A stretch of 10,725 bases of DNA, from the UHGV virus genome UHGV-0134920; one strand, given 5' to 3'. Shown one piece after another: positions 3,035 through 10,725 of this stretch. The notes under the pieces were generated by a model, which worked only from the letters and a program-made list of their open reading frames with translations, was not told where the DNA came from and ran no database searches. This DNA comes from a virus. The position numbers and the translations under genes were made by a program. Each line of letters begins with the position of its first letter. The first letter of the stretch is position 1.

Positions 3035-3488
3035 AAACCGCTTGCAAAAAATTATCACGGGGCTGTATGCTTCCCCCGTCGCCCACATGGCGACCGGGTT
3101 TAGCAGCCTGAATACATCTGGCGGACAGCCGCCCACATCCGATAAGCGGTTTTTTTGTGTCCGTAAACCTACCCATACCCGCATTATGGCGGGGCGTAAC
3201 GGGGGAGCCTTTGTGCTCGCTGGTTTCCAGATGACCAGTCTGCTAACCCTGTTACGTCTCGCCACCATGTTTAGCAGCGTAGTAGCGAGACTCCTTAAAA
3301 TTCATCTGGGAGCCTTTCACATGGCTGTATTCGCACGCCCTTATTTTGTCTGGCGCTTTATGCAGTGCCTGACAGACAGTATTGCAATATTCACCGTTAC
3401 CGCTGCCACTGAGCGCGAAGCACGTGCACAGCTGCCGCACGCACATCTGATTTTTGTCGCCCGTATTCGTCAGGGGGTAGGCTTATGA
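3027..3488 (+). CDS. Ash-family-like protein with C-terminal Icd-like module
   Basis: ATG at 3027 overlaps the upstream stop by 8 nt. C-terminal ~55 aa (YFVWRFMQ...TEREARAQ...ARIRQG) are paralogous to the preceding 65-aa protein. An internal start near 3321 (MAVFARPYFVWRF) cannot be excluded. Stop overlaps the next start (ATGA at 3485-3488). Confidence 0.55.
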   Translation: MRKNRLQKIITGLYASPVAHMATGFSSLNTSGGQPPTSDKRFFCVRKPTHTRIMAGRNGGAFVLAGFQMTSLLTLLRLATMFSSVVARLLKIHLGAFHMAVFARPYFVWRFMQCLTDSIAIFTVTAATEREARAQLPHAHLIFVARIRQGVGL

Positions 3489-4160: not shown

Positions 4161-4460
4161 ATGAAACTTAAATATTCTGGCTTAACTGCCAGTGGCAAAA
4201 CTCGCACTAAATTCATGCGCGGTGATATTTACCGCGACCAGTACGGCGGCACGGTAATGATTAAGGGCGTGGAGGAACGGCGCGTAACCTACCGTCGTGA
4301 AGGCTACGAATATGATTGCGTGATGCCTGTTTATCAGTTCGATCGTGATTTTTCTCTGGTGCAGGCCGTACCGCGTAACGTGCCCACCAGCAGGGAGAAA
4401 GCACGCGCCAATATTCAGGAAATAAAAAAGATGCTTAACGTATTCAGGGGTAAAAAATGA
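4161..4460 (+). CDS. hypothetical protein (99 aa)
   Basis: GGAG at 4146-4149 upstream; stop overlaps the primase start (ATGA at 4457-4460), indicating operon coupling with the replication gene. Confidence 0.5.
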   Translation: MKLKYSGLTASGKTRTKFMRGDIYRDQYGGTVMIKGVEERRVTYRREGYEYDCVMPVYQFDRDFSLVQAVPRNVPTSREKARANIQEIKKMLNVFRGKK

Positions 4461-6205
4461 AACTGGCACCGAACGTAAAAAAACAGCCACGCGGAATAAA
4501 ACACAAAGACACAGAGGTAATTATTTTCGCGGGTAGTGATGCCTGGTCGCACGCGAAACAATGGCAGGAGCAGGATGGCCCCGCATCCGGCGATAATGTG
4601 CCGCCTGTGTGGCTTGGGCCAAATCAGCTTGCCGAACTTGATGCACTGAAAATTGTTCCGGATGGAAAAAAACGCGTAAGGCTGTACCAGGCCGGAGAAC
4701 TGGATTTGGTGGAGACCAAAAAGATTGGTCAGAAGCTGGCGGCGGCAGATATTCAGGACGCAAATTTTTACCCCGAAGGAATGCACGTCCAGAAGTGTGA
4801 AAACTGGCGGCGCTATCTGAATGCTGAGCGTGAAAATATTGCCGCAGGGCTTACCATGCCGGAGCAGAAAAATACGCAACTGGCACAAATGGCAGACAGT
4901 GAGCGCGCACAGATGCTTGCTGGTCGATTTGATGGCGTTTGTGTGCATCCGGAAAGTGAAATCGTTCACGTATGGCGCGGCGGGGTATGGTGTCCGGTCA
5001 GCACAATGGAACTTAGCCGCGAAATGGTGGCGATCTATTCAGAGCACAGGGCCACTTTCAGCAAGCGCGTAATCAATAACGCCGTGGAAGCGTTAAAAGT
5101 TATTGCCGAACCAATGGGCGAGCCGTCCGGCGATTTGCTGCCGTTCGCCAATGGTGCGCTTGACCTGAAAACGGGGGAATTTTCCCCGCACACGCCGGAG
5201 AACTGGATCACCACGCACAACGGCATTGAGTACACGCCACCAGCACCAGGGGAGAATATCTGCGACAACGCGCCAAACTTTCATAAATGGCTTGAGCACG
5301 CAGCCGGAAAAGACCCGCGCAAGATGATGCGTATATGTGCCGCGCTGTACATGATTATGGCGAACCGGTACGACTGGCAGATGTTTATTGAGGCCACCGG
5401 AGACGGCGGGAGCGGCAAAAGTACATTCACCCACATCGCCAGCCTTTTAGCGGGGAAACAAAACACGGTAAGCGCGGAAATGACATCGCTTGATGATGCT
5501 GGTGGGCGTGCGCAGGTTGTCGGGAGTCGTCTTATCGTCCTGGCAGACCAGCCGAAATATACAGGCGAAGGCACGGGCATCAAGAAAATCACGGGCGGCG
5601 ACCCCGTGGAAATCAACCCGAAATATGAAAAGCGTTTCACTACGGTAATCAGGGCGGTGGTGCTGGCGACCAATAACAACCCGATGATATTCACCGAACG
5701 GGCCGGAGGCGTGTCACGTCGTCGGGTTATTTTCCGCTTCGACAATATCGTAAGCGAGGCAGAAAAAGACAGGGAGCTACCGGAAAAGATCGCGGCTGAA
5801 ATCCCAGTCATTATCCGCCGCTTGCTGGCGAACTTTACCGACCCTGAGAAGGCACGGGCTTTACTACTGGAACAGCGTGACGGTGATGAAGCTCTGGCAA
5901 TAAAGCAACAGACGGATCCGGTTATTGAGTTTTGCCAGTTCCTGAATTTTCTGGAGGAAGCGCGCGGCCTGATGATGGGTGGCGGTGGCGATTCAGTGAA
6001 GTACACGACCAGGAACAGCCTTTACCGCGTCTATCTGGCGTTTATGGCATACGCCGGAAGGAACAAGCCGCTAAACGTGGCTGAGTTCAGCAAAGCTATG
6101 AAGCCAGCGGCGAAAGTTTACGGGCATGAATATATTACGCGGAAAGTCAATGGAGTTACGCAGACTAACGCAATAACAACAGACGATTGCGACGCGTTTT
6201 TATAA
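4457..6205 (+). CDS. replication initiator, P4 alpha C-terminal-like SF3 helicase/NTPase (primase-helicase family)
   Basis: 582 aa; Walker A GDGGSGKST, Walker B-like RLIVLADQP and SF3 motif C VVLATNNNP. Followed immediately by an iteron array. A catalytic primase (toprim/AEP) domain cannot be confirmed by eye. Confidence 0.85.
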   Translation: MKLAPNVKKQPRGIKHKDTEVIIFAGSDAWSHAKQWQEQDGPASGDNVPPVWLGPNQLAELDALKIVPDGKKRVRLYQAGELDLVETKKIGQKLAAADIQDANFYPEGMHVQKCENWRRYLNAERENIAAGLTMPEQKNTQLAQMADSERAQMLAGRFDGVCVHPESEIVHVWRGGVWCPVSTMELSREMVAIYSEHRATFSKRVINNAVEALKVIAEPMGEPSGDLLPFANGALDLKTGEFSPHTPENWITTHNGIEYTPPAPGENICDNAPNFHKWLEHAAGKDPRKMMRICAALYMIMANRYDWQMFIEATGDGGSGKSTFTHIASLLAGKQNTVSAEMTSLDDAGGRAQVVGSRLIVLADQPKYTGEGTGIKKITGGDPVEINPKYEKRFTTVIRAVVLATNNNPMIFTERAGGVSRRRVIFRFDNIVSEAEKDRELPEKIAAEIPVIIRRLLANFTDPEKARALLLEQRDGDEALAIKQQTDPVIEFCQFLNFLEEARGLMMGGGGDSVKYTTRNSLYRVYLAFMAYAGRNKPLNVAEFSKAMKPAAKVYGHEYITRKVNGVTQTNAITTDDCDAFL

Positions 6206-6491: not shown

Positions 6492-6806
6492 ATGCGCATA
6501 CATCAAAATAACTTAACAAACATATCAGCCGAAAACATGAATCAGGGGCGACAAATGGCCATAATTCACAGAGACAGAACACAGGCAAAATATAAAGCGT
6601 TAGACATGACAGAGCTTTCCCTAAAGGTGGCAATCAGAACGATAGACCGCCACACGCGGGAAGGATACGCGAAGGAACATCCCGACCTGATAAGCGCATT
6701 CATGACCACGGCGGCGGCAAACTTTGCCACGCTGACAGAACGGGAGATTGCCGAAGCGGAACAGGTAACAACCATCAACGTTAAAACCGGAGAGCAGACA
6801 GCATGA
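6492..6806 (+). CDS. hypothetical protein (104 aa)
   Basis: GAGGGGGG RBS at 6475-6482; stop overlaps the ssb start (ATGA at 6803-6806). Alternative internal starts at 6536 and 6555. Confidence 0.5.
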   Translation: MRIHQNNLTNISAENMNQGRQMAIIHRDRTQAKYKALDMTELSLKVAIRTIDRHTREGYAKEHPDLISAFMTTAAANFATLTEREIAEAEQVTTINVKTGEQTA

Positions 6807-7213
6807 CAGCACAGATAGCAGCTTACGGGCGGCTGGTGGACGACCCGCAGGTAAAACAGACCAGTAAGGGCACACCGATGACGCTGGCGCGTATGGCGGT
6901 ATCGCTGCCATGCAGCCAGGCACAGGATGGACAGGCGACGTTATGGCTATCGGTCATCGCATTTGGTAAGCAGGCCGACTTCCTGGCTAAACATCAAAAA
7001 GGCGACGTTGCCAGCGTATCCGGCACGATGCAGGTCAGCCAGTGGACCGGACAGAACGGGGAAACGCGGCAGGGCTGGCAGGTTATTGCAGACAGCGTAA
7101 TCAGTGCCCGTGCGGCACGTCCTGGCGGGAACAGACGCAAGACCACAGGCACACAGGGTAATCAGCCACCAGCGGGAGGCGATGCCCCTTACGGTGATGA
7201 TATTCCGTTCTGA
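6803..7213 (+). CDS. ssb: single-stranded DNA-binding protein
   Basis: 136 aa; OB-fold SSB pattern (AYGRLVDDPQVKQTSKG...WLSVIAFGKQADFLAKHQKGDVASVSGTMQVSQW), Gly/Pro/Gln-rich linker and acidic C-terminal tip ...GDDIPF typical of bacterial and phage SSBs. Confidence 0.85.
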   Translation: MTAQIAAYGRLVDDPQVKQTSKGTPMTLARMAVSLPCSQAQDGQATLWLSVIAFGKQADFLAKHQKGDVASVSGTMQVSQWTGQNGETRQGWQVIADSVISARAARPGGNRRKTTGTQGNQPPAGGDAPYGDDIPF

Positions 7214-7223
7214 GGGGGTGAGG

Positions 7224-7472
7224 ATGGTACATGACCGCATAGCGGAGGAACTCGAGGCAAAAGGCTTTTACCGGAGGGCGGCGGCACGATGGGGTGAAGT
7301 CATGCAACTGGTGGAGACAGACAAGGAACGGCATCAGGTTACGATGCGACGGCTGGAATGTTCCAGGAAGGCACAGAGGCCACCGGAGCCGCCAACGGAG
7401 AACTATGCAGACCTGAGAAATGCAGTAAATCGCACTTACGCAGACATGGGGCTGAGCAAATTAGCAGAGTAG
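7224..7472 (+). CDS. possible PerC-family-like transcriptional regulator (tentative)
   Basis: 82 aa from ATG 7224 (alternative GTG 7218). Motif EELEAKGFYRRAAARW resembles the conserved PerC/Pch segment as recalled. The N-terminal part of the 122-aa track ORF overlaps ssb out of frame and is rejected. Confidence 0.4.
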   Translation: MVHDRIAEELEAKGFYRRAAARWGEVMQLVETDKERHQVTMRRLECSRKAQRPPEPPTENYADLRNAVNRTYADMGLSKLAE

Positions 7473-7495
7473 GAATACCAGAACCACACCACACA

Positions 7496-7518
7496 GCCGG
7501 AGCAATCCGGCTTTTTTG
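7496..7518 (+). terminator. rho-independent terminator (first of two)
   Basis: GCCGG-agcaat-CCGGC hairpin followed by TTTTTTG. Confidence 0.5.
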
Positions 7519-7523
7519 CGCCC

Positions 7524-7566
7524 AAAAAAAGCCCGATAAGGTCAGAGGTGGCTTATCGGGCTTTTG
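7524..7566. terminator. bidirectional rho-independent terminator
   Basis: 10-bp stem GCCCGATAAG (7531-7540) / CTTATCGGGC (7552-7561), flanked by A7 upstream and TTTTG downstream. Confidence 0.6.
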
Positions 7567-7641
7567 CATATGAGGTTTTTTGGTGCACTGACACACATGA
7601 TCGGGATAATCATTTCATAATTTGCAACGCAACTCAATATC

Positions 7642-7696
7642 ATTGCACAAAATGCAATCATGATTATAATCATAACTGGATGAACATCCAGTTATG
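7642..7696 (+). promoter_or_regulatory. candidate sigma70-type promoter of the head operon overlapped by palindromic operator-like sites
   Basis: -35-like TTGCAC (7643-7648), 16-nt spacer, consensus -10 TATAAT (7665-7670). Palindromes ATTGCA-caaaa-TGCAAT (7642-7658), TGATTATAATCA (7661-7672) and perfect 12-bp arms CATAACTGGATG-aa-CATCCAGTTATG (7671-7696). Confidence 0.5.
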
Positions 7697-7726
7697 ATTT
7701 TTTAAGTCAAAGAGGAATTTCTTACT

Positions 7727-7933
7727 ATGGCTGAAGAGAAAAAAGGCGGTGTTTCGGTGTACATAAGCCCCGACATCGTGAAGGCGCTCAAGGAACGCCA
7801 CCAGCAGAACGTAAAAGCAGGCATTGCGGCAGGACTTGATCCGCTGGCGATGGTTGAGCCGTCAACAGGCTGGCAGGTACGCGCCTATTTACGCGCGGCG
7901 CTGGGTATGAATCAGGTTCACGGGGGTGAATAA
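7727..7933 (+). CDS. hypothetical protein (68 aa), first gene of the head operon
   Basis: AGAGGA RBS at 7711-7716; stop TAA overlaps the capsid gene ATG (7931-7935). Confidence 0.5.
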   Translation: MAEEKKGGVSVYISPDIVKALKERHQQNVKAGIAAGLDPLAMVEPSTGWQVRAYLRAALGMNQVHGGE

Positions 7934-8988
7934 TGACAGTAAAAGCAATAGCACTTAACACTAACCAGCTTTTTGCGTACCTGAATCGCGAGGATATTGC
8001 GGAATTTAAATTCAGTCCGCTGTTTACCGCGCTGTTTTTCCCGAACGTGGCGACATTCAACACACAGGACATCATGTTAGATAACCTGGATATTGAAGAA
8101 GTCACTATGTCGGCGTTTTGTTCGCCTATGGTGGGTAGCCAGGTTCAGCGCGATAAAGGGTACGAAACAAGCATTATTCGCCCTGGCTACATGAAGCCAA
8201 AACACGAAATCGATCCATTAAAAACAATAATGCGCATGGCTGGAGAAGATCCAGCACAGCTTAACGACCCTACCTACCGCCGTATGCGCCTGATTACTGG
8301 CAACATGCGCCGCCAGATAAACGCCATTAAAGCGCGCGAGGAATGGCTGGCGGTAAATGCGGTAACGACCGGAAAAAACATCATTGAGGGCGAAGGCATA
8401 GAGCGCTATGAAATCGACTGGAAGATACCGGAAAAAAACATCATAGAGCAGGCCGACGGTAAAAAATGGTCAGAGCAGGACAAAGACATACACGACCCAA
8501 TCTATGACATTGAGCTATACGCAGATCAGGCAGGTTGCCCCGCAAACGTCATGATTATGGGCGTTGATGTATGGCGCATGTTACGCAGCTTTAAAAAATT
8601 CCGTGAACTGTACGATCTCTCCCGTGGTTCAGAATCCGCCGCAGAGCTGGCATGTAAAAACCTGGGCGAAGTGGTGAGCTTTAAAGGCTATCTTGGTGAT
8701 CTGGCCCTTATCGTCTATTCCGGCAAATACACTGACAGCGACGGCACAGAAAAATATTTCCTTGAGCCTGATTTGCTGGTCCTGGGCAACACCAACAATA
8801 AAGGGCTGGTGGCCTATGGTGCGATTATGGAACAGGAAGCGGTAAGAACGGGCGCAACGCAAAACATGTTTTACCCGAAAAACTGGATTGAGGACGGCGA
8901 TCCGGCGATTGAGTACGTGCAGACGCACAGCGCACCGCAGCCGGTTCCGGCAGATATTCGCAAATTTGTTACCGTCAAAATTGGTTAA
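7933..8988 (+). CDS. major capsid protein, lambda gpE family
   Basis: 351 aa; colinear similarity to lambda gpE as recalled (FKFSPLF..LFF; RPGYMKPKHEIDP; EDPAQLNDPTYRRMRLITGNMR; KGYLGDLALIVYSGKY; VLGNT; YPKNW; SAPQPVPAD). Confidence 0.9.
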   Translation: MTVKAIALNTNQLFAYLNREDIAEFKFSPLFTALFFPNVATFNTQDIMLDNLDIEEVTMSAFCSPMVGSQVQRDKGYETSIIRPGYMKPKHEIDPLKTIMRMAGEDPAQLNDPTYRRMRLITGNMRRQINAIKAREEWLAVNAVTTGKNIIEGEGIERYEIDWKIPEKNIIEQADGKKWSEQDKDIHDPIYDIELYADQAGCPANVMIMGVDVWRMLRSFKKFRELYDLSRGSESAAELACKNLGEVVSFKGYLGDLALIVYSGKYTDSDGTEKYFLEPDLLVLGNTNNKGLVAYGAIMEQEAVRTGATQNMFYPKNWIEDGDPAIEYVQTHSAPQPVPADIRKFVTVKIG

Positions 8989-9000
8989 CGGGGGGATTCT

Positions 9001-9336
9001 ATGGACACTCCATACATTGAGTTATTTGCAGGCAGTCAGCAGGTATCCACGACGCTGGTACATTTTGCCGCTGATGCTGGCGTTATTCAGGAATTTACCC
9101 CGCTGATGCTGGCGGACAATGGCGAGTTTAAGCCGTGGGATGGTCAGGAATCTGGCAAGGCTGTTTATCTGACTTCGTACCCCGTGGACACGTCAAAGCA
9201 GAAATCAGCACAGTGTTACAAGACGGGGATATTTAATATCGCCGCCGTAAACTGGCCTGAGAGCGCCGACACTGACGCGAAAAAATGCGCCGCCTTTGCG
9301 GGTTCTGGCGTATCCGTTCAGCCGCTGGCGCGATAA
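9001..9336 (+). CDS. head decoration protein, lambda gpD family
   Basis: 111 aa; matches to lambda gpD as recalled (TPLMLAD, KPWDG, YKTGIFN, WPESADTDAKKCAAFAGSG). Confidence 0.85.
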   Translation: MDTPYIELFAGSQQVSTTLVHFAADAGVIQEFTPLMLADNGEFKPWDGQESGKAVYLTSYPVDTSKQKSAQCYKTGIFNIAAVNWPESADTDAKKCAAFAGSGVSVQPLAR

Positions 9337-9348
9337 GCAGGGGAAACG

Positions 9349-9762
9349 ATGGCAACGAATGAAAGCATCATGGCGCTACCGCTGGCGAGTAAATTTAAAG
9401 CAGAAGCGCGGGCAATGGCTGACAGAGGTTTATCAACCTACGAGGCCGTATATCAACTCAACAAACTGGAAGAACAGGACAAGCCGCGCGCTGATGCGAT
9501 TATGGCGCTTCATGAGCATAAAGACTATCAGCCGCTGTTACGTGCAATGGCAAACGTGCCATGTATTAGCGTCGATAATGCTCGTGAAATCCTGAACATG
9601 ACCATAGAGCAGGAGCGCCCAAAGGTTGCACCAGAGCTTACCGCAGCCTTTGAAAACTTTATGGACATGCACAGCCCGCAAGCCGTATCAGCTGGCATGG
9701 CGTACGATGGCAGAAACCAGGGCGATGACGGCGACATCGATCGCATACTGAAAACCATCTGA
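9349..9762 (+). CDS. hypothetical protein (137 aa), last gene of the head operon
   Basis: CAGGGGAAA RBS-like sequence upstream of ATG 9349; acidic; followed by a strong terminator; no recognisable family. Confidence 0.55.
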   Translation: MATNESIMALPLASKFKAEARAMADRGLSTYEAVYQLNKLEEQDKPRADAIMALHEHKDYQPLLRAMANVPCISVDNAREILNMTIEQERPKVAPELTAAFENFMDMHSPQAVSAGMAYDGRNQGDDGDIDRILKTI

Positions 9763-9768
9763 GACAAG

Positions 9769-9792
9769 GCCGGAGAAATCCGGCTTTTTTTT
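9769..9792 (+). terminator. rho-independent terminator
   Basis: GCCGGA-gaaa-TCCGGC hairpin followed by T8 (9785-9792). Confidence 0.8.
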
Positions 9793-9824
9793 ACGGGTCC
9801 TTTCCGGCATATGGACCCGTTACG

Positions 9825-9858
9825 GGGCGGCGACCTCGCGGTTTTTCGCTATTTATGA
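9825..9858. other. lambda-type cos site (cosN core plus conserved flank)
   Basis: GGGCGGCGACCT at 9825-9836 equals the lambda 12-nt cohesive end as recalled. The next 22 nt CGCGGTTTTTCGCTATTTATGA (9837-9858) differ from the recalled lambda left-end CGCGGGTTTTCGCTATTTATGA at one position. Lies ~135 bp upstream of a Nu1-like gene, as in lambda. Confidence 0.7.
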
Positions 9859-9930
9859 GCCTTTTCAGGGGGGTGGTGGTGGTTTTGTTGTTTGCTCTAT
9901 CTTTATGAATGAAAAGGGAAAGATGCAAAC

Positions 9931-9968
9931 AATACACCAACCTGAAGCAGTAATTAAGTTGGTGTATT
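9931..9968. promoter_or_regulatory. 11-bp perfect inverted repeat abutting the terS start (candidate cosB/TerS-binding or translational control element)
   Basis: AATACACCAAC (9931-9941) and GTTGGTGTATT (9958-9968) separated by 16 nt; ends 1 nt before the ATG at 9970. Confidence 0.4.
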
Positions 9969-9969
9969 A

Positions 9970-10512
9970 ATGAAATCGCACCTGATGAACAAAAAAAACA
10001 TGGCGAAAAGCTGCCGTGTAAGTGCGACAGCGTTCGACAAGTGGGGAGTGACTCCCGTTGAACGTAAAGGCCGTGAGGCGTTTTACGATGTTGCCAGCGT
10101 GATAGACAATAGGGTTAACAATGCAATTAGCCAGCTTACAAACGACAAAGGCGATATTGATGATGATGAACTCTTACGAGTCAGGATCAGATTACTGACA
10201 GCACAGGCGGAGGCGCAGGAACTTAAAAACGAGCGCGATCGCGGTGACGTGATCGATACTGAGTTTTGCCTGTACGCGCTTTCAAAGCTGGCGAGTCAGA
10301 TTTCATCAATCATGGACAGCCTCCCGCTTACTATGCAAAGGAGCTTCCCACAGATTACCCCCGCCATGCTGGATAGGCTTAAAAGGGAAGTGGTTAAAGC
10401 CTGTAATGCCAGTGCCAGAGTTGCCGACAACCTCCCACAGATACTGGCTGATTACTTGAAAGAAACAACCGGAAACGTACCGGAAAAGTTGCAGCCGAAT
10501 AAAGATAAGTAA
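9970..10512 (+). CDS. terS: terminase small subunit, lambda Nu1-like with divergent N-terminal DNA-binding domain
   Basis: 180 aa (alternative start ATG 9985, MNKKN..., aligns better with the Nu1 N-terminus MEVNKKQ). C-terminal two thirds are similar to lambda Nu1 as recalled (RLLTAQAEAQELKNERDRGDVIDTEFCLYALSKLASQISSIMDSLPLTMQRSFPQ versus RLTRAQADAQELKNARDSAEVVETAFCTFVLSRIAGEIASILDGLPLSVQRRFPE). N-terminal ~55 aa are much less conserved. Confidence 0.8.
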   Translation: MKSHLMNKKNMAKSCRVSATAFDKWGVTPVERKGREAFYDVASVIDNRVNNAISQLTNDKGDIDDDELLRVRIRLLTAQAEAQELKNERDRGDVIDTEFCLYALSKLASQISSIMDSLPLTMQRSFPQITPAMLDRLKREVVKACNASARVADNLPQILADYLKETTGNVPEKLQPNKDK

Positions 10513-10523
10513 CGTAGTACGCT

Positions 10524-10725
10524 ATGACTGAATCCGAAATACTGCGATTAATCCGCCGCGTCTCTGGAATCAGCCAGCAGGCTGACGAACAGACCACGCA
10601 GCCGGACAGCGTGACAGCCGAAAACTATGCGCGTGTTGTTGCTGAGGTGATGCGCCGTGATGGTATAGAACTTAATGGCGTGGATATGCGCAACATACGA
10701 ACCAGAGTTCTTGAGTTGCTGGCCT
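10524..10725 (+). CDS. hypothetical protein, 5' partial (runs off the window)
   Basis: ATG at 10524, 12 nt after the terS stop; open to the window end (MTESEILRLIRRVSGISQQADEQ...). No resemblance to the lambda gpA N-terminus as recalled. Confidence 0.45.
   Translation, partial: MTESEILRLIRRVSGISQQADEQTTQPDSVTAENYARVVAEVMRRDGIELNGVDMRNIRTRVLELLA

Follow-up and report, generated by a model that had tools for sequence, protein, structure and literature searches.

A lambda-type cos site followed by a candidate cosB and an island terS, probably the packaging site of an EcCICFT073-type phage-inducible chromosomal island

Background

Phage-inducible chromosomal islands (PICIs) spread virulence and defence genes among enterobacteria, and the competition for packaging decides which phages can carry them. 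The island EcCICFT073 is packaged in a lambda- and phi80-dependent way by means of a cos site in which phage-like cosQ and cosN sequences are combined with a different cosB and with an island-encoded specificity factor, Rpp (PMC6092414, PMC6739421). The concept that an island joins phage cutting signals to a recognition part of its own has as such been published in 2018, 2019 and 2022. The TerS-encoding PICIs IHE3034 and 18098, which are comparable to the island described here at least in encoding a TerS, yielded at most 40-110 transductants per ml from their native strains (PMC6092414). In the literature that we searched, this 2018 paper was the only one found to name TerS-type E. coli PICIs, and no experimental description of the TerS-type cassette was found. 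A satellite-encoded TerS is also known from the pac-type staphylococcal PICIs (SaPI TerS; Ubeda 2007 and Chen 2015, as cited in bioRxiv 10.1101/2022.09.08.507074).

The recognition half of cos has been studied in the lambda-like phages. Its R3, R2 and R1 elements have the same orientations in lambda, 21 and the Monarch prophage (PMC9026076, PMC4669245). In N15, GAGGTTGTTGTT at bp 48-59 serves as R3, and the yield drops approximately 100-fold when its GTTGTT motif is scrambled (PMC4669245). The terminase of lambda or 21 does not package N15-specific DNA (PMC4669245), which is the property that a satellite would need.

Here, we analysed a stretch of 10,725 nucleotides of viral DNA (UHGV virus genome UHGV-0134920; further called the window), compared its cos region with those of phages and related islands, and mapped the variation among 55 distinct cassettes of the same type. 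The window is an uncharacterised TerS-type variant of the published concept, and we consider it probable that positions 9795-9969 are the cos site of an EcCICFT073-type PICI that works by a two-part mechanism including its own TerS.

Results

Based on its open reading frames and their Pfam matches, the window is a PICI of about 11 kb of the EcCICFT073 type, encoding int, alpA, a P4-type primase, SSB and PerC next to a gpE-like capsid and a gpD-like decoration gene, while no terL, portal, tail or lysis genes were found among the same matches. The unidirectional gene order, the replication module, a length within 10-20 kb and a dedicated att site are likewise those of Gram-negative PICIs of this type, and relatives of the island are elements of about 11 kb located at tRNA-Pro/yejM. 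Up to position 9865 the island is collinear with, and 95% identical to, EcCICFT073. Three other identities were rejected: a capsid-forming PICI (cf-PICI), as only the gpE-like and gpD-like genes and terS are present and an own terL, HNH, portal, protease and head-tail connectors are absent; a P4-like element, on gene content; and an intact lambdoid prophage left end, given the PICI setting and the absence of gpA and of lambda R sites. The 137-aa ORF upstream of cos had no Pfam or PDB match. The block formed by the capsid, decoration and 137-aa genes is closed by an intrinsic-terminator-like hairpin with a T-run (9766-9792, plus strand; 9-pair stem with 5 G-C pairs), directly upstream of cosQ.

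The original prediction placed the lambda cohesive-end 12-mer GGGCGGCGACCT at 9825-9836 (plus strand), which can be read directly from the sequence. It is the sole exact copy in the window, for which we calculated a chance expectation of about 0.001 in 10.7 kb on both strands; three sites in the window match it with at most two mismatches. The 22 nucleotides to its right (CGCGGTTTTTCGCTATTTATGA, 9837-9858, plus strand), claimed to match lambda with one substitution, indeed align with lambda +13 to +34 except for a G to T change at 9842, a position that is polymorphic (G, T, A or C) among the 55 cassettes. The cosQ sequence GGGTCCT, the packaging-termination signal of lambda-like phages, in which it is highly conserved (PMC4669245), lies at 9795-9801 (plus strand), from -30 to -24 relative to the nick, ungapped with respect to the lambda spacing and retained in 54 of the 55 cassettes; it had escaped the earlier reading of the sequence. 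The 23-nt spacer between cosQ and cosN (9802-9824, plus strand) is identical to that of the lambdoid phage PhiR5_1, and at least 15 variants of it occur among related islands. By analogy with lambda, the predicted nicks are at 9824/9825 (top strand) and 9836/9837 (bottom strand). None of the 55 cassettes deviates at cosN positions 1-5 or in the flanking CG, with -1 to +5 and +14 showing no variation, and positions 6-12 vary except for 11; such a left/right asymmetry of variation is known for lambda-like cosN (PMC4669245). The region has the make-up of a lambda-like cos, with the 12-mer, the CG flanks and the conserved left half of cosN and with cosQ about 30 bp before the nick. A second, phage-type cos was detected in the window neither by motif scan nor by blastn.

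To the right of this half the resemblance to lambda ends, as had been proposed: reading 9837-9969 by eye, we did not find the R-site core CGTTTCC/GGAAACG. The G/T tract GGGGGGTGGTGGTGGTTTTGTTGTTTG reported in this region exists, with its coordinates corrected from 9867-9893 to 9868-9894. The description of a divergent cosB side holds in so far as the region is unlike lambda, but it is not a novel sequence type; it resembles the N15/Monarch class. The R3-like block (9868-9895, plus strand) consists of a G-run, (GGT)4 at 9872-9883 (+48 to +59) and TTGTTGTTT at 9885-9893 (+61 to +69), and nearly every position from 9875 to 9892 is at least 90% conserved in the 55 cassettes. Similar R3-type blocks are found in Enterobacter and Citrobacter PICIs (GGTGGTGGTGTTGTT) and in L095 (GGTGG...GTTGTTGTTT). 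A 29-bp spacer (9896-9924, plus strand) with an invariant TATGAAT at 9904-9910 separates it from the R2-like element (9925-9946, minus strand), which contains ACACCAACC (9934-9942), is 78% complementary to 9878-9895 of the R3-like block over 18 nt, and has as its core ACACCAACCTGAA (9934-9946). In the spacer, the best 13-mer agrees with the IHF consensus WATCAANNNNTTR at fewer than 7 of its 9 defined positions. The R1-like element (9957-9968, plus strand) is a weaker R-like element and overlaps the likely ribosome-binding region of terS. R3 forward, R2 reverse and R1 forward are the orientations expected of such blocks, which also lie in the expected places beside terS, the R3-like block at the usual distance from cosN, and have no IHF consensus between the first two of them. 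A remote rR2 site of the N15 style was not found within terS.

The invariant run of 13 nt formed by ACACCAACCTGAA stands against a background of 54% invariant non-coding and 34% invariant third-codon positions. Judged on sequence, the constancy of cosQ and of cosN positions 1-5, the variation at cosN positions 6-12 (11 excepted) and the conservation of the R3-like block and of ACACCAACCTGAA above the third-codon background match what would be expected of functional elements. The right half resembles a tripartite cosB of the N15/Monarch class and not of the lambda/21 class. TGGTG occurs in all three R-like elements of the window's family at the place where the N15 type has TGTTG, R3 is not GAGGTTGTTGTT at bp 48-59, the N15-identical TTGTTGTTT lies 9 bp farther from cosN than in N15, and the TerS recognition helix differs at 2 of 9 positions; cosB and TerS are relatives of the N15/Monarch class, probably with a distinct specificity. 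The cos1 cosB of EcCICFT073 was rejected as a deletion product of the window cosB (local alignment score of 12 versus a shuffle mean of 13.5). Only a reverse-complement (ACC)n/(GGT)n match between the two stood out, with a score of 22 that equals the best of 500 shuffles, all of them scored for the forward comparison.

The R2-like and R1-like elements coincide with the left and right arm of an 11-bp inverted repeat (AATACACCAAC at 9931-9941 and GTTGGTGTATT at 9958-9968) that is 100% complementary and ends 1 nt before the ATG at 9970, in line with the first description. The perfect repeat is limited to 19 of the 55 cassettes and is thus not what is conserved here. In the remaining cassettes 7-8 of the 11 positions pair, the differences all lying on the right without any compensation on the left; the perfect repeat is lineage-specific and only the left arm is conserved. 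Instead of paired TerS sites, the repeat might be an RNA hairpin masking the ribosome-binding site of terS and exerting translational control, which could coexist with the explanation that we prefer. The RNA of this region folds at -19.5 kcal/mol (z = -3.7 versus shuffles), with its 3' arm ending 1 nt before the start codon. We nevertheless hold this to be unlikely, as the uncompensated changes just described speak against a maintained stem, the sequence-invariant left arm suits recognition by a protein better than pairing, the arms lie approximately 95 bp apart in N15-type PICI cos sites, and no Rfam family matched at the repeat. A sigma-70-like promoter for terS was not found.

The terS gene (9970-10512, plus strand) encodes a 180-aa small terminase subunit of the Nu1 family, presumed to be the packaging-specificity factor of the island. 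It matches Pfam Phage_Nu1 at E=2.3e-23 (83 bits versus a cut-off of 30), is predicted to have the N-terminal winged helix-turn-helix of that family, and aligns over its full length with lambda Nu1 at 35% identity. A profile of TerS matches lambda TerS (6HN7_B, E=0.005, residues 6-84), while a single-sequence search of the PDB gave nothing meaningful. The predicted secondary structure is a helix, a helix, two single beta-bridge residues and a helix. An AlphaFold2 model built on 14 aligned sequences reached a pLDDT of 53.5, which is low, so that a winged-helix fold is assigned from sequence homology together with the secondary-structure prediction. The terS gene is intact and under purifying selection, the mean column identity being 0.96 at both the first and the second codon position and 0.85 at the third.

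The two ends of the protein have different relatives. The best phage matches of the N-terminal domain are N15 gp1 (55.7% over residues 5-65; recognition helix VSATAFDKW versus ISVQAFDKW in N15) and the Pseudomonas D3-like phages (about 59%), and at E<0.1 N15 was the single E. coli phage to match, with no hits to phages of the lambda, 21 or PhiR type. The C-terminal domain has its nearest counterparts among the Nu1 proteins of lambdoid E. coli phages (PhiR5_1 58%, PhiR12 53%, N15 41% and lambda 40%), and the central segment LTAQAEAQELKNERD is strongly conserved with Nu1 of lambda, 21 and PhiR5_1. As far as its sequence tells, TerS is a natural mosaic of a short-wing DNA-binding domain of the N15/D3 class and an E. 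coli lambdoid Nu1-like C-terminal domain. No cognate helper emerged from a collection of 50,697 phage records, none of which has a C-terminal domain more than 58% identical. A literature search for the PhiR phage series returned nothing. In the TerS proteins of Enterobacter and Citrobacter PICIs the DNA-binding domain is 77-79% identical and the last 40 residues are 28-32% identical, and the best phage matches of their C-terminal domain (44-46%) do not indicate a helper either.

By blastn, EcCICFT073 matches the window at 6627-9865 (95.3%) and at 10524-10725 (88%), and nothing matches in between. This cassette of cosB and specificity factor (9866-10523, plus strand) is the sole part of the packaging region that is non-homologous to EcCICFT073, and its slot is occupied there by the cosB of cos1, rppA and an inverted cos2. 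Rpp accounts solely for the islands that carry rpp, and the TerS-type cassette was found, at 80% or more of its length, in 763 of 5,426 complete E. coli genomes (14%, or about one in seven), among which that of the probiotic strain Nissle 1917. In the contexts examined it always lies in a PICI setting, never beside gpA remnants, and terL never follows terS. CosB and terS are inherited jointly, in a single cassette of which the DNA-binding domain hardly varies, and different upstream modules in other islands join it precisely at cosQ. The island of Nissle has an extra, inverted second cos, the R repeats of which, when we compared them, looked similar to the ones in the 21-type prophage of CFT073. 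The TerS family appears to be largely confined to Escherichia and Shigella, with relatives of 57-60% identity in Enterobacter and Citrobacter; a scan of contigs with the TerS alignment, taking one genome per species, found no relative.

Discussion

That a conserved cleavage site with altered recognition would serve the packaging of a satellite, as the original prediction had it, is supported by the satellite setting, by the adjacent full-length Nu1-family TerS and by the experiments on EcCICFT073. From the observed sequence anatomy, homologies, conservation pattern, genomic context and distribution we infer TerS binding at the blocks, a TerS-TerL interaction, the cut positions and independence of the helper TerS. 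The left half, which runs from cosQ through the spacer and cosN to about 34 bp beyond the latter, would be the substrate of a helper gpA-type TerL, which would make the 12-nt staggered cut in cosN and terminate packaging, while the island TerS would bind its own cosB and recruit this TerL to the lambda-type cosN. Island DNA would be selected by the N-terminal winged-helix domain, and the PhiR5_1/PhiR12 Nu1-like C-terminal domain would dock on the helper TerL. Helper terminase activity could in this way be redirected to island concatemers with the helper TerS being dispensable, unlike in the Rpp system. We counted against this mechanism that the recognition helix differs from that of N15, that TTGTTGTTT is shifted, that the spacer lacks an IHF consensus and is just 29 bp long, that no cognate helper emerged from the phage collection, that the structural model is of low confidence, and that the TerS-encoding PICIs IHE3034 and 18098 transferred at low rates (PMC6092414).

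The sister island suggests another mode, demonstrated for Rpp (PMC6739421), in which the island TerS hetero-oligomerises with the helper TerS via the central helices, the mixed complex reads cosB and the helper TerS is still needed for TerL. The conservation of LTAQAEAQELKNERD makes such mixed oligomers plausible, and a C-terminal domain just 40-58% identical to known phage Nu1 proteins would fit as well. This mode appears improbable to us, since TerS is full-length and aligns with Nu1 to its end, whereas Rpp, at 144 aa, is missing the 30-40 C-terminal residues to which TerL binding is attributed (PMC9026076), and since its DNA-binding domain is only 19% identical to that of RppA and the TerS profile misses RppC in the PDB. 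We rate it as more improbable still that the cos is read directly by a helper TerS of N15/Monarch-class specificity, the island terS being redundant or mainly interfering with the helper. The related islands L010, L011 and L001, which lack terS and rpp, do carry an N15-identical R3 (GGTTGTTGTTTAAT at +51 to +64) and two more copies in the R2/R1 arrangement, and PICIs therefore do employ cosBs of the phage type with no specificity factor encoded in cis; the prophage-like second cos of the Nissle island points the same way. In the window, which has no such second cos, the TGGTG motifs and the two helix differences suggest a separate specificity, and the co-inheritance of cosB with terS and its near-invariant DNA-binding domain speaks against this reading.

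The poor transfer of the TerS-type islands tested in 2018 (PMC6092414) and the lack of an identified helper might also be taken to mean that the region is a decaying remnant, a captured lambdoid prophage left end that no longer functions. This is very hard to reconcile with a terS kept intact by purifying selection, with the conservation, among 55 distinct cassettes and in more than one genus, of cosQ, of the left half of cosN and of the blocks in cosB, with the presence of the cassette in 14% of complete E. coli genomes, and with its constant PICI context away from any gpA remnant, and we give it hardly any weight.

Returning to the proposed adaptor function of TerS, we tentatively suggest, as an idea that may well prove wrong, that the packaging-specificity cassettes of E. 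coli PICIs are interchangeable modules exchanged at cosN, the one in the window consisting of a matching tripartite cosB and a chimeric TerS adaptor, in which an N15-class DNA-binding domain is joined to a TerL-docking tail suited to the helper and which bypasses the helper TerS, and that cos itself, possibly via terminase cutting, is a hotspot of shuffling. Junctions exactly at cosQ/cosN, together with the many spacer variants and the cos-bounded inversions in related islands, would mean that cos is a recombination hotspot. If true, the chimeric TerS adaptor would give cos satellites a third option, besides Rpp and a copied helper cos. If TerS works as proposed, the helper range would be set by compatibility with TerL and not with TerS, nature would provide a modular TerS of which the recognition and motor-docking domains evolve separately, and a compact orthogonal cos/TerS pair would become available for engineering lambda-based packaging and delivery.

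Comparison with known systems

The closest described system is cos1 with RppA of EcCICFT073 (Fillol-Salom et al. 2018 ISME J, PMC6092414; 2019 Mol Cell, PMC6739421; Murialdo & Feiss 2022, PMC9026076). Both islands share a backbone that is 95% identical up to +41 of cos, an identical cosQ-cosN spacer, a cosN flank one base apart, phage-type cutting signals beside a non-phage cosB, a specificity factor gene directly downstream and, next to it, a common 93-aa ORF. They differ in the factor itself, a 180-aa full-length Nu1 homologue with a C-terminal domain here versus the 144-aa RppA without it, the two being 19% identical across the DNA-binding domain; no Rpp homologue (about 144-153 aa, with a TerS-like DNA-binding domain and without a TerL-binding C-terminus) was found here. 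Three R-like elements make up the window cosB, while for cos1 only one R3 (ACCACCACC, +55 to +63) has been proposed, the inverted second cos is missing here, and the dependence on the helper TerS is predicted to differ.

With the N15/Monarch prophage group (Feiss et al. 2015, PMC4669245) the window shares a short-wing TerS DNA-binding domain (55.7% over residues 5-65), a GTTGTT-containing R3 element beside a lambda-like cosN and an R3/R2/R1 arrangement as in Monarch. It departs from N15 in its recognition helix (VSATAFDKW/ISVQAFDKW), in TGGTG versus TGTTG, in the greater distance (by 9 bp) of TTGTTGTTT from cosN, in the lack of an IHF consensus, of a remote rR2 in terS and of a following terL, and in a TerS C-terminal domain that is nearer to E. 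coli lambdoid Nu1 than to N15 gp1.

The SaPIs likewise encode a TerS homologue, which, according to the source cited above, reads the satellite packaging site and uses the helper TerL; they package by headful (pac), their TerS belongs to an unrelated family, and they have Ppi as a separate inhibitor. The window island, in contrast, pairs a lambda-type cos, predicted to give 12-nt ends, with a TerS of the Nu1 family, and it yielded no Ppi homologue. Finally, P4, SaPIbov5 and the helper-embedded PICI 11capE (PMC10111431) also place a helper-type cos inside a small satellite, but they carry the whole helper cos, including its recognition part, without an own specificity factor, whereas the helper-like parts of the window are cosQ, cosN and the cosN flank only.

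An EcCICFT073-type island with a different cos-terS cassette

The window contains genes for an integrase (2-1261), AlpA (1758-1964), a P4-type primase (4457-6205), SSB (6803-7213), PerC, a gpE-family capsid protein (7933-8988), a gpD-family decoration protein (9001-9336), a 137-aa protein with no assigned function (9349-9762) and a 180-aa Nu1-family TerS (9970-10512), after which a 93-aa ORF begins (10524). Strains including E. coli Nissle 1917 have the same ~11 kb element between tRNA-Pro/yejM and yejO/narP, and it lacks terL as well as portal, tail and lysis genes. We located the model PICI EcCICFT073 in the CFT073 genome. The window is collinear with it, and blastn between the two gave 95.3% identity over 6627-9865, 88% over 10524-10725 and nothing between, so that the window represents an EcCICFT073-type island with one differing cassette (9866-10523). 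In this slot EcCICFT073 carries the cosB of cos1, rppA (144 aa) and an inverted cos2, whereas the window has another cosB and a full-length terS. At ≥80% of its length, the cassette is found in 763 of 5,426 complete E. coli genomes.

Two other modules of the island were noted. The Rfam C4 antisense RNA (RF01695) is matched at 3182-3269 (+) with 72.7 bits (E=5e-13), in a region where relatives are annotated with Icd-like cell-division-inhibitor genes. It looks like a P1/P7-type immunity module within a PICI. The lambda gpE-family capsid and gpD-family decoration genes (7933-9336) are the island's own; their EcCICFT073 homologues, c1499 and c1500, were reported to be dispensable for transfer and interference.

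The cutting signals are lambda-like

The lambda cohesive-end 12-mer GGGCGGCGACCT is read directly at 9825-9836, as had been predicted, and is the sole exact copy in the window, where we calculate a chance expectation of ~0.001 per 10.7 kb on both strands; with up to 2 mismatches allowed, three sites are found. Alignment likewise bears out the predicted match of some 22 nt to its right, 9837-9858 corresponding to lambda +13 to +34 with a single change (G to T at 9842), at a base that is polymorphic among related elements. Missed by the original prediction was cosQ, GGGTCCT at 9795-9801, which aligns at exactly the lambda distance from the nick and is separated from cosN by a 23-nt spacer identical to that of the lambdoid phage PhiR5_1.

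For comparison, 78 IMG/VR loci and several E. coli genome loci with this terS were reduced to 55 distinct cos-terS cassettes. cosQ is kept in 54 of them. Positions 1-5 of cosN and the flanking CG are invariant and positions 6-12 (except 11) are variable (e.g. GGGCGTCAGGCG, GGGCGGAAGGCG, GGGCGGCAGACG), a pattern that is the functional asymmetry of cosN reported for lambda-like phages (PMC4669245). Together with at least 15 variants of the cosQ-cosN spacer across related cassettes, this half-variable cosN suggests that exchange with helpers at cos is frequent. A second cos is absent from the window, as judged by the 12-mer scan and by blastn against EcCICFT073. The primase gene contains GGGCGGCGACCC at 5593-5604 (+), one mismatch from cosN and shared with EcCICFT073 (L007 21384); no cosQ was seen beside it, and it is probably a coding-sequence coincidence.

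The recognition region resembles an N15/Monarch-type cosB

Read by eye, 9837-9969 contains no copy of the lambda R-site core (CGTTTCC/GGAAACG). The G/T-rich tract predicted here is present, at 9868-9894 and not, one base off, at 9867-9893. Among the 55 cassettes, the block TGGTGGTGGTTTTGTTGTT is ≥90% conserved at nearly all positions, and both TATGAAT (9904-9910) and the 13-nt run ACACCAACCTGAA (9934-9946) are invariant, against a background of only 54% invariant non-coding and 34% invariant third-codon positions. The predicted 11-bp perfect inverted repeat was confirmed as well (arms 9931-9941 and 9958-9968, ending 1 base before the ATG at 9970). Its perfect form occurs in 19 of the 55 cassettes; the others retain 7-8 of 11 pairs, and because the right arm varies and the left arm has no compensating change, the conserved feature is the left arm as a sequence and not the hairpin.

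A repeat search also paired the G/T block (9878-9895) with the left-arm region (9925-9942) as an 18-nt inverted pair of 78% complementarity. Combined with the inverted repeat, this yields three related elements, forward, reverse and forward, of which the R2-like and R1-like each read GGTTGGTGTATT on their own strand. The order of these putative elements is that of the R3-R2-R1 rule in lambda, 21 and Monarch (PMC9026076, PMC4669245). The window has (GGT)4 at +48 to +59 from the nick in lambda numbering and then TTGTTGTTT at +61 to +69; the N15 left end reads GAGGTTGTTGTTTAAT at +48 to +63, and Feiss et al. mapped N15 R3 to bp 48-59, where scrambling GTTGTT (bp 54-59) reduced the yield ~100-fold (PMC4669245). 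Given this mapped R3 and the window blocks at +48 to +69, the G/T-rich tract most likely represents R3 of a cosB related to those of N15/Monarch. It is not identical to that of N15: N15-type R elements contain TGTTG and all three of the window TGGTG. The recognition helix of TerS differs too (VSATAFDKW versus ISVQAFDKW in N15), a suggestive co-variation of site and helix. Neither an IHF consensus between the R3-like and R2-like blocks nor an N15-like remote rR2 was found.

In three otherwise near-identical cassettes (L019, L021 and L023, equivalents of 9866-9897), the G-run and the (GGT)n copy number differ by ≥3 nt, which could reflect repeat slippage or homopolymer-like sequencing error. In lambda, the cosN-R3 spacing tolerates changes of 1-2 bp only.

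TerS is a mosaic

TerS aligns over its full length with lambda Nu1 (35% identity, E=1e-34), although its wing is 5 residues shorter and its linker is shorter too, as in N15 gp1. Searching its halves separately against 50,697 phage records revealed clearly split affinities, indicative of a mosaic. The best phages for the N-terminal 71 residues were Pseudomonas D3-like (~59%) and N15 gp1 (55.7%), none of lambda, 21 or PhiR type being matched at E<0.1, and those for the C-terminal 87 residues were PhiR5_1 (58%), PhiR12 (53%), N15 (41%) and lambda (40%). Enterobacter/Citrobacter PICIs have the same capsid-decoration-regulator-terS arrangement and retain a GGTGGTGGTGTTGTT block in the R3 position. 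Their TerS is 77-79% identical to that of the window in the DNA-binding domain, but identity falls to 28-32% over the final 40 residues. Across the family, the DNA-reading end thus remains with its site, and it is the C-terminal end that changes. The C-terminal ~40 residues of lambda Nu1 are the proposed TerL-binding domain (PMC9026076). As this end of the window TerS is nearest to Nu1 of E. coli lambdoid phages, including the PhiR5_1 that shares its spacer, we infer that it tracks the TerL of local helpers. Over the 55 cassettes the mean column identity of terS is 0.96 at both the first and the second codon position and 0.85 at the third, which indicates purifying selection.

Other cos arrangements in related islands

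In islands with neither terS nor rpp (L001 17533-18068, L010 1546-2081), two inverted cos sites flank a ~600-bp segment that lies in opposite orientations in the two strains (98% identity; blastn 22-619 versus 617-20), pointing to recombination or cut-and-rejoin between the copies. Orphan PICI cos sites at L010 (+) 1546, L011 (+) 1531 and L001 (-) ~18068 have the R3 of N15 (GGTTGTTGTTTAAT at +51 to +64) and two further copies (GGTTGTTGTAT) in R2/R1 orientation ~95 bp apart; those of L001 and L010 have neither a TerS nor an Rpp gene beside them, and that of L011 lies in the cos2 slot, adjoining an Rpp-sized (146-aa) ORF. Here satellites appear to have borrowed cosBs of the Monarch type. The Nissle 1917 island (L002) has an extra inverted cos2 at ~16362 (-), between terS and the 93-aa ORF, with CATGTCGG-type R repeats that in our comparison resemble those of CFT073's resident 21-type prophage, whereas in the window, which lacks it, the terS stop is followed after only 11 bp by the next ATG. 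Enterobacter/Citrobacter-type contigs (L092-L094) apparently carry helper-embedded PICIs inside a lambdoid prophage major capsid gene, with a lambda-type cos and a 170-aa TerS of the same family; the published helper-embedded 11capE was described as lacking terS (PMC10111431).

Discussion

Most likely, packaging would start after helper-driven induction and replication, with island TerS dimers binding the R3-like and R2-like (and R1-like) blocks. For the steps after TerS binding we reason from homology and published work on EcCICFT073 and lambda/N15: the C-terminal domains of TerS would bring in a helper gpA-type TerL, which would nick at 9824/9825 and 9836/9837, and packaging would run to the right, across terS and on around the concatemer, to be terminated by cosQ and cosN of a later copy. 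Island TerS would compete with helper TerS for TerL. Lambda or 21 terminase does not package N15 DNA (PMC4669245), and since these terminases do not recognise an N15-type cosB, helper TerS would ignore the island.

We considered two other routes, namely an Rpp-like hetero-complex for which helper TerS is still needed and a helper of N15/Monarch specificity using this cos directly. The inverted repeat might act as an RNA hairpin, and it does fold at -19.5 kcal/mol (z = -3.7), but its pairing is not conserved and we disfavour this role. We also disfavour a dead remnant, against which the conservation of the cassette speaks.

Fillol-Salom et al. found that the cos sites of EcCICFT073 have a lambda-like cosQ/cosN and miss the phage cosB, that lambda and phi80 transfer plasmids bearing them when cloned, that cos1 is required for transfer, and that a complex of RppA and helper TerS reads the cos1 cosB and not the phage cosB (PMC6092414, PMC6739421). 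On the strength of these experiments, the original prediction of a satellite combining helper-type cutting signals with private recognition is correct and already published in principle. Murialdo and Feiss proposed the Rpp site at +48 to +65, the R3 position (PMC9026076). The Rpp-type cos1 (L007, +54 to +65) has (ACC)3-4, the exact reverse complement of the window (GGT)4 (9872-9883), at near-equal distance from cosN; this 11-nt match scores 22, no higher than the best of 500 shuffles, which were scored for the forward comparison. The DNA-binding domains of the window TerS and RppA are unrelated in sequence. A TerS homologue was noted in 2018 in some E. coli PICIs and not in EcCICFT073, and two TerS-encoding islands tested then gave hardly any transfer (PMC6092414). 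Our literature search found no publication on the cos or mechanism of TerS-encoding E. coli PICIs, and the TerS-type version is the undescribed part in the literature searched. The TerS-type cassette offers specialists in PICIs and terminases a good lead for experiments, without being a surprise. A PICI cos that pairs cutting signals of helper type with its own recognition module is a known kind of system, and the cosB class is related to one known from phages; what appears new is the full-length chimeric Nu1-type TerS replacing Rpp, the tripartite anatomy of cosB, the cassette boundaries at +41 and the terS stop, and the prevalence of the cassette.
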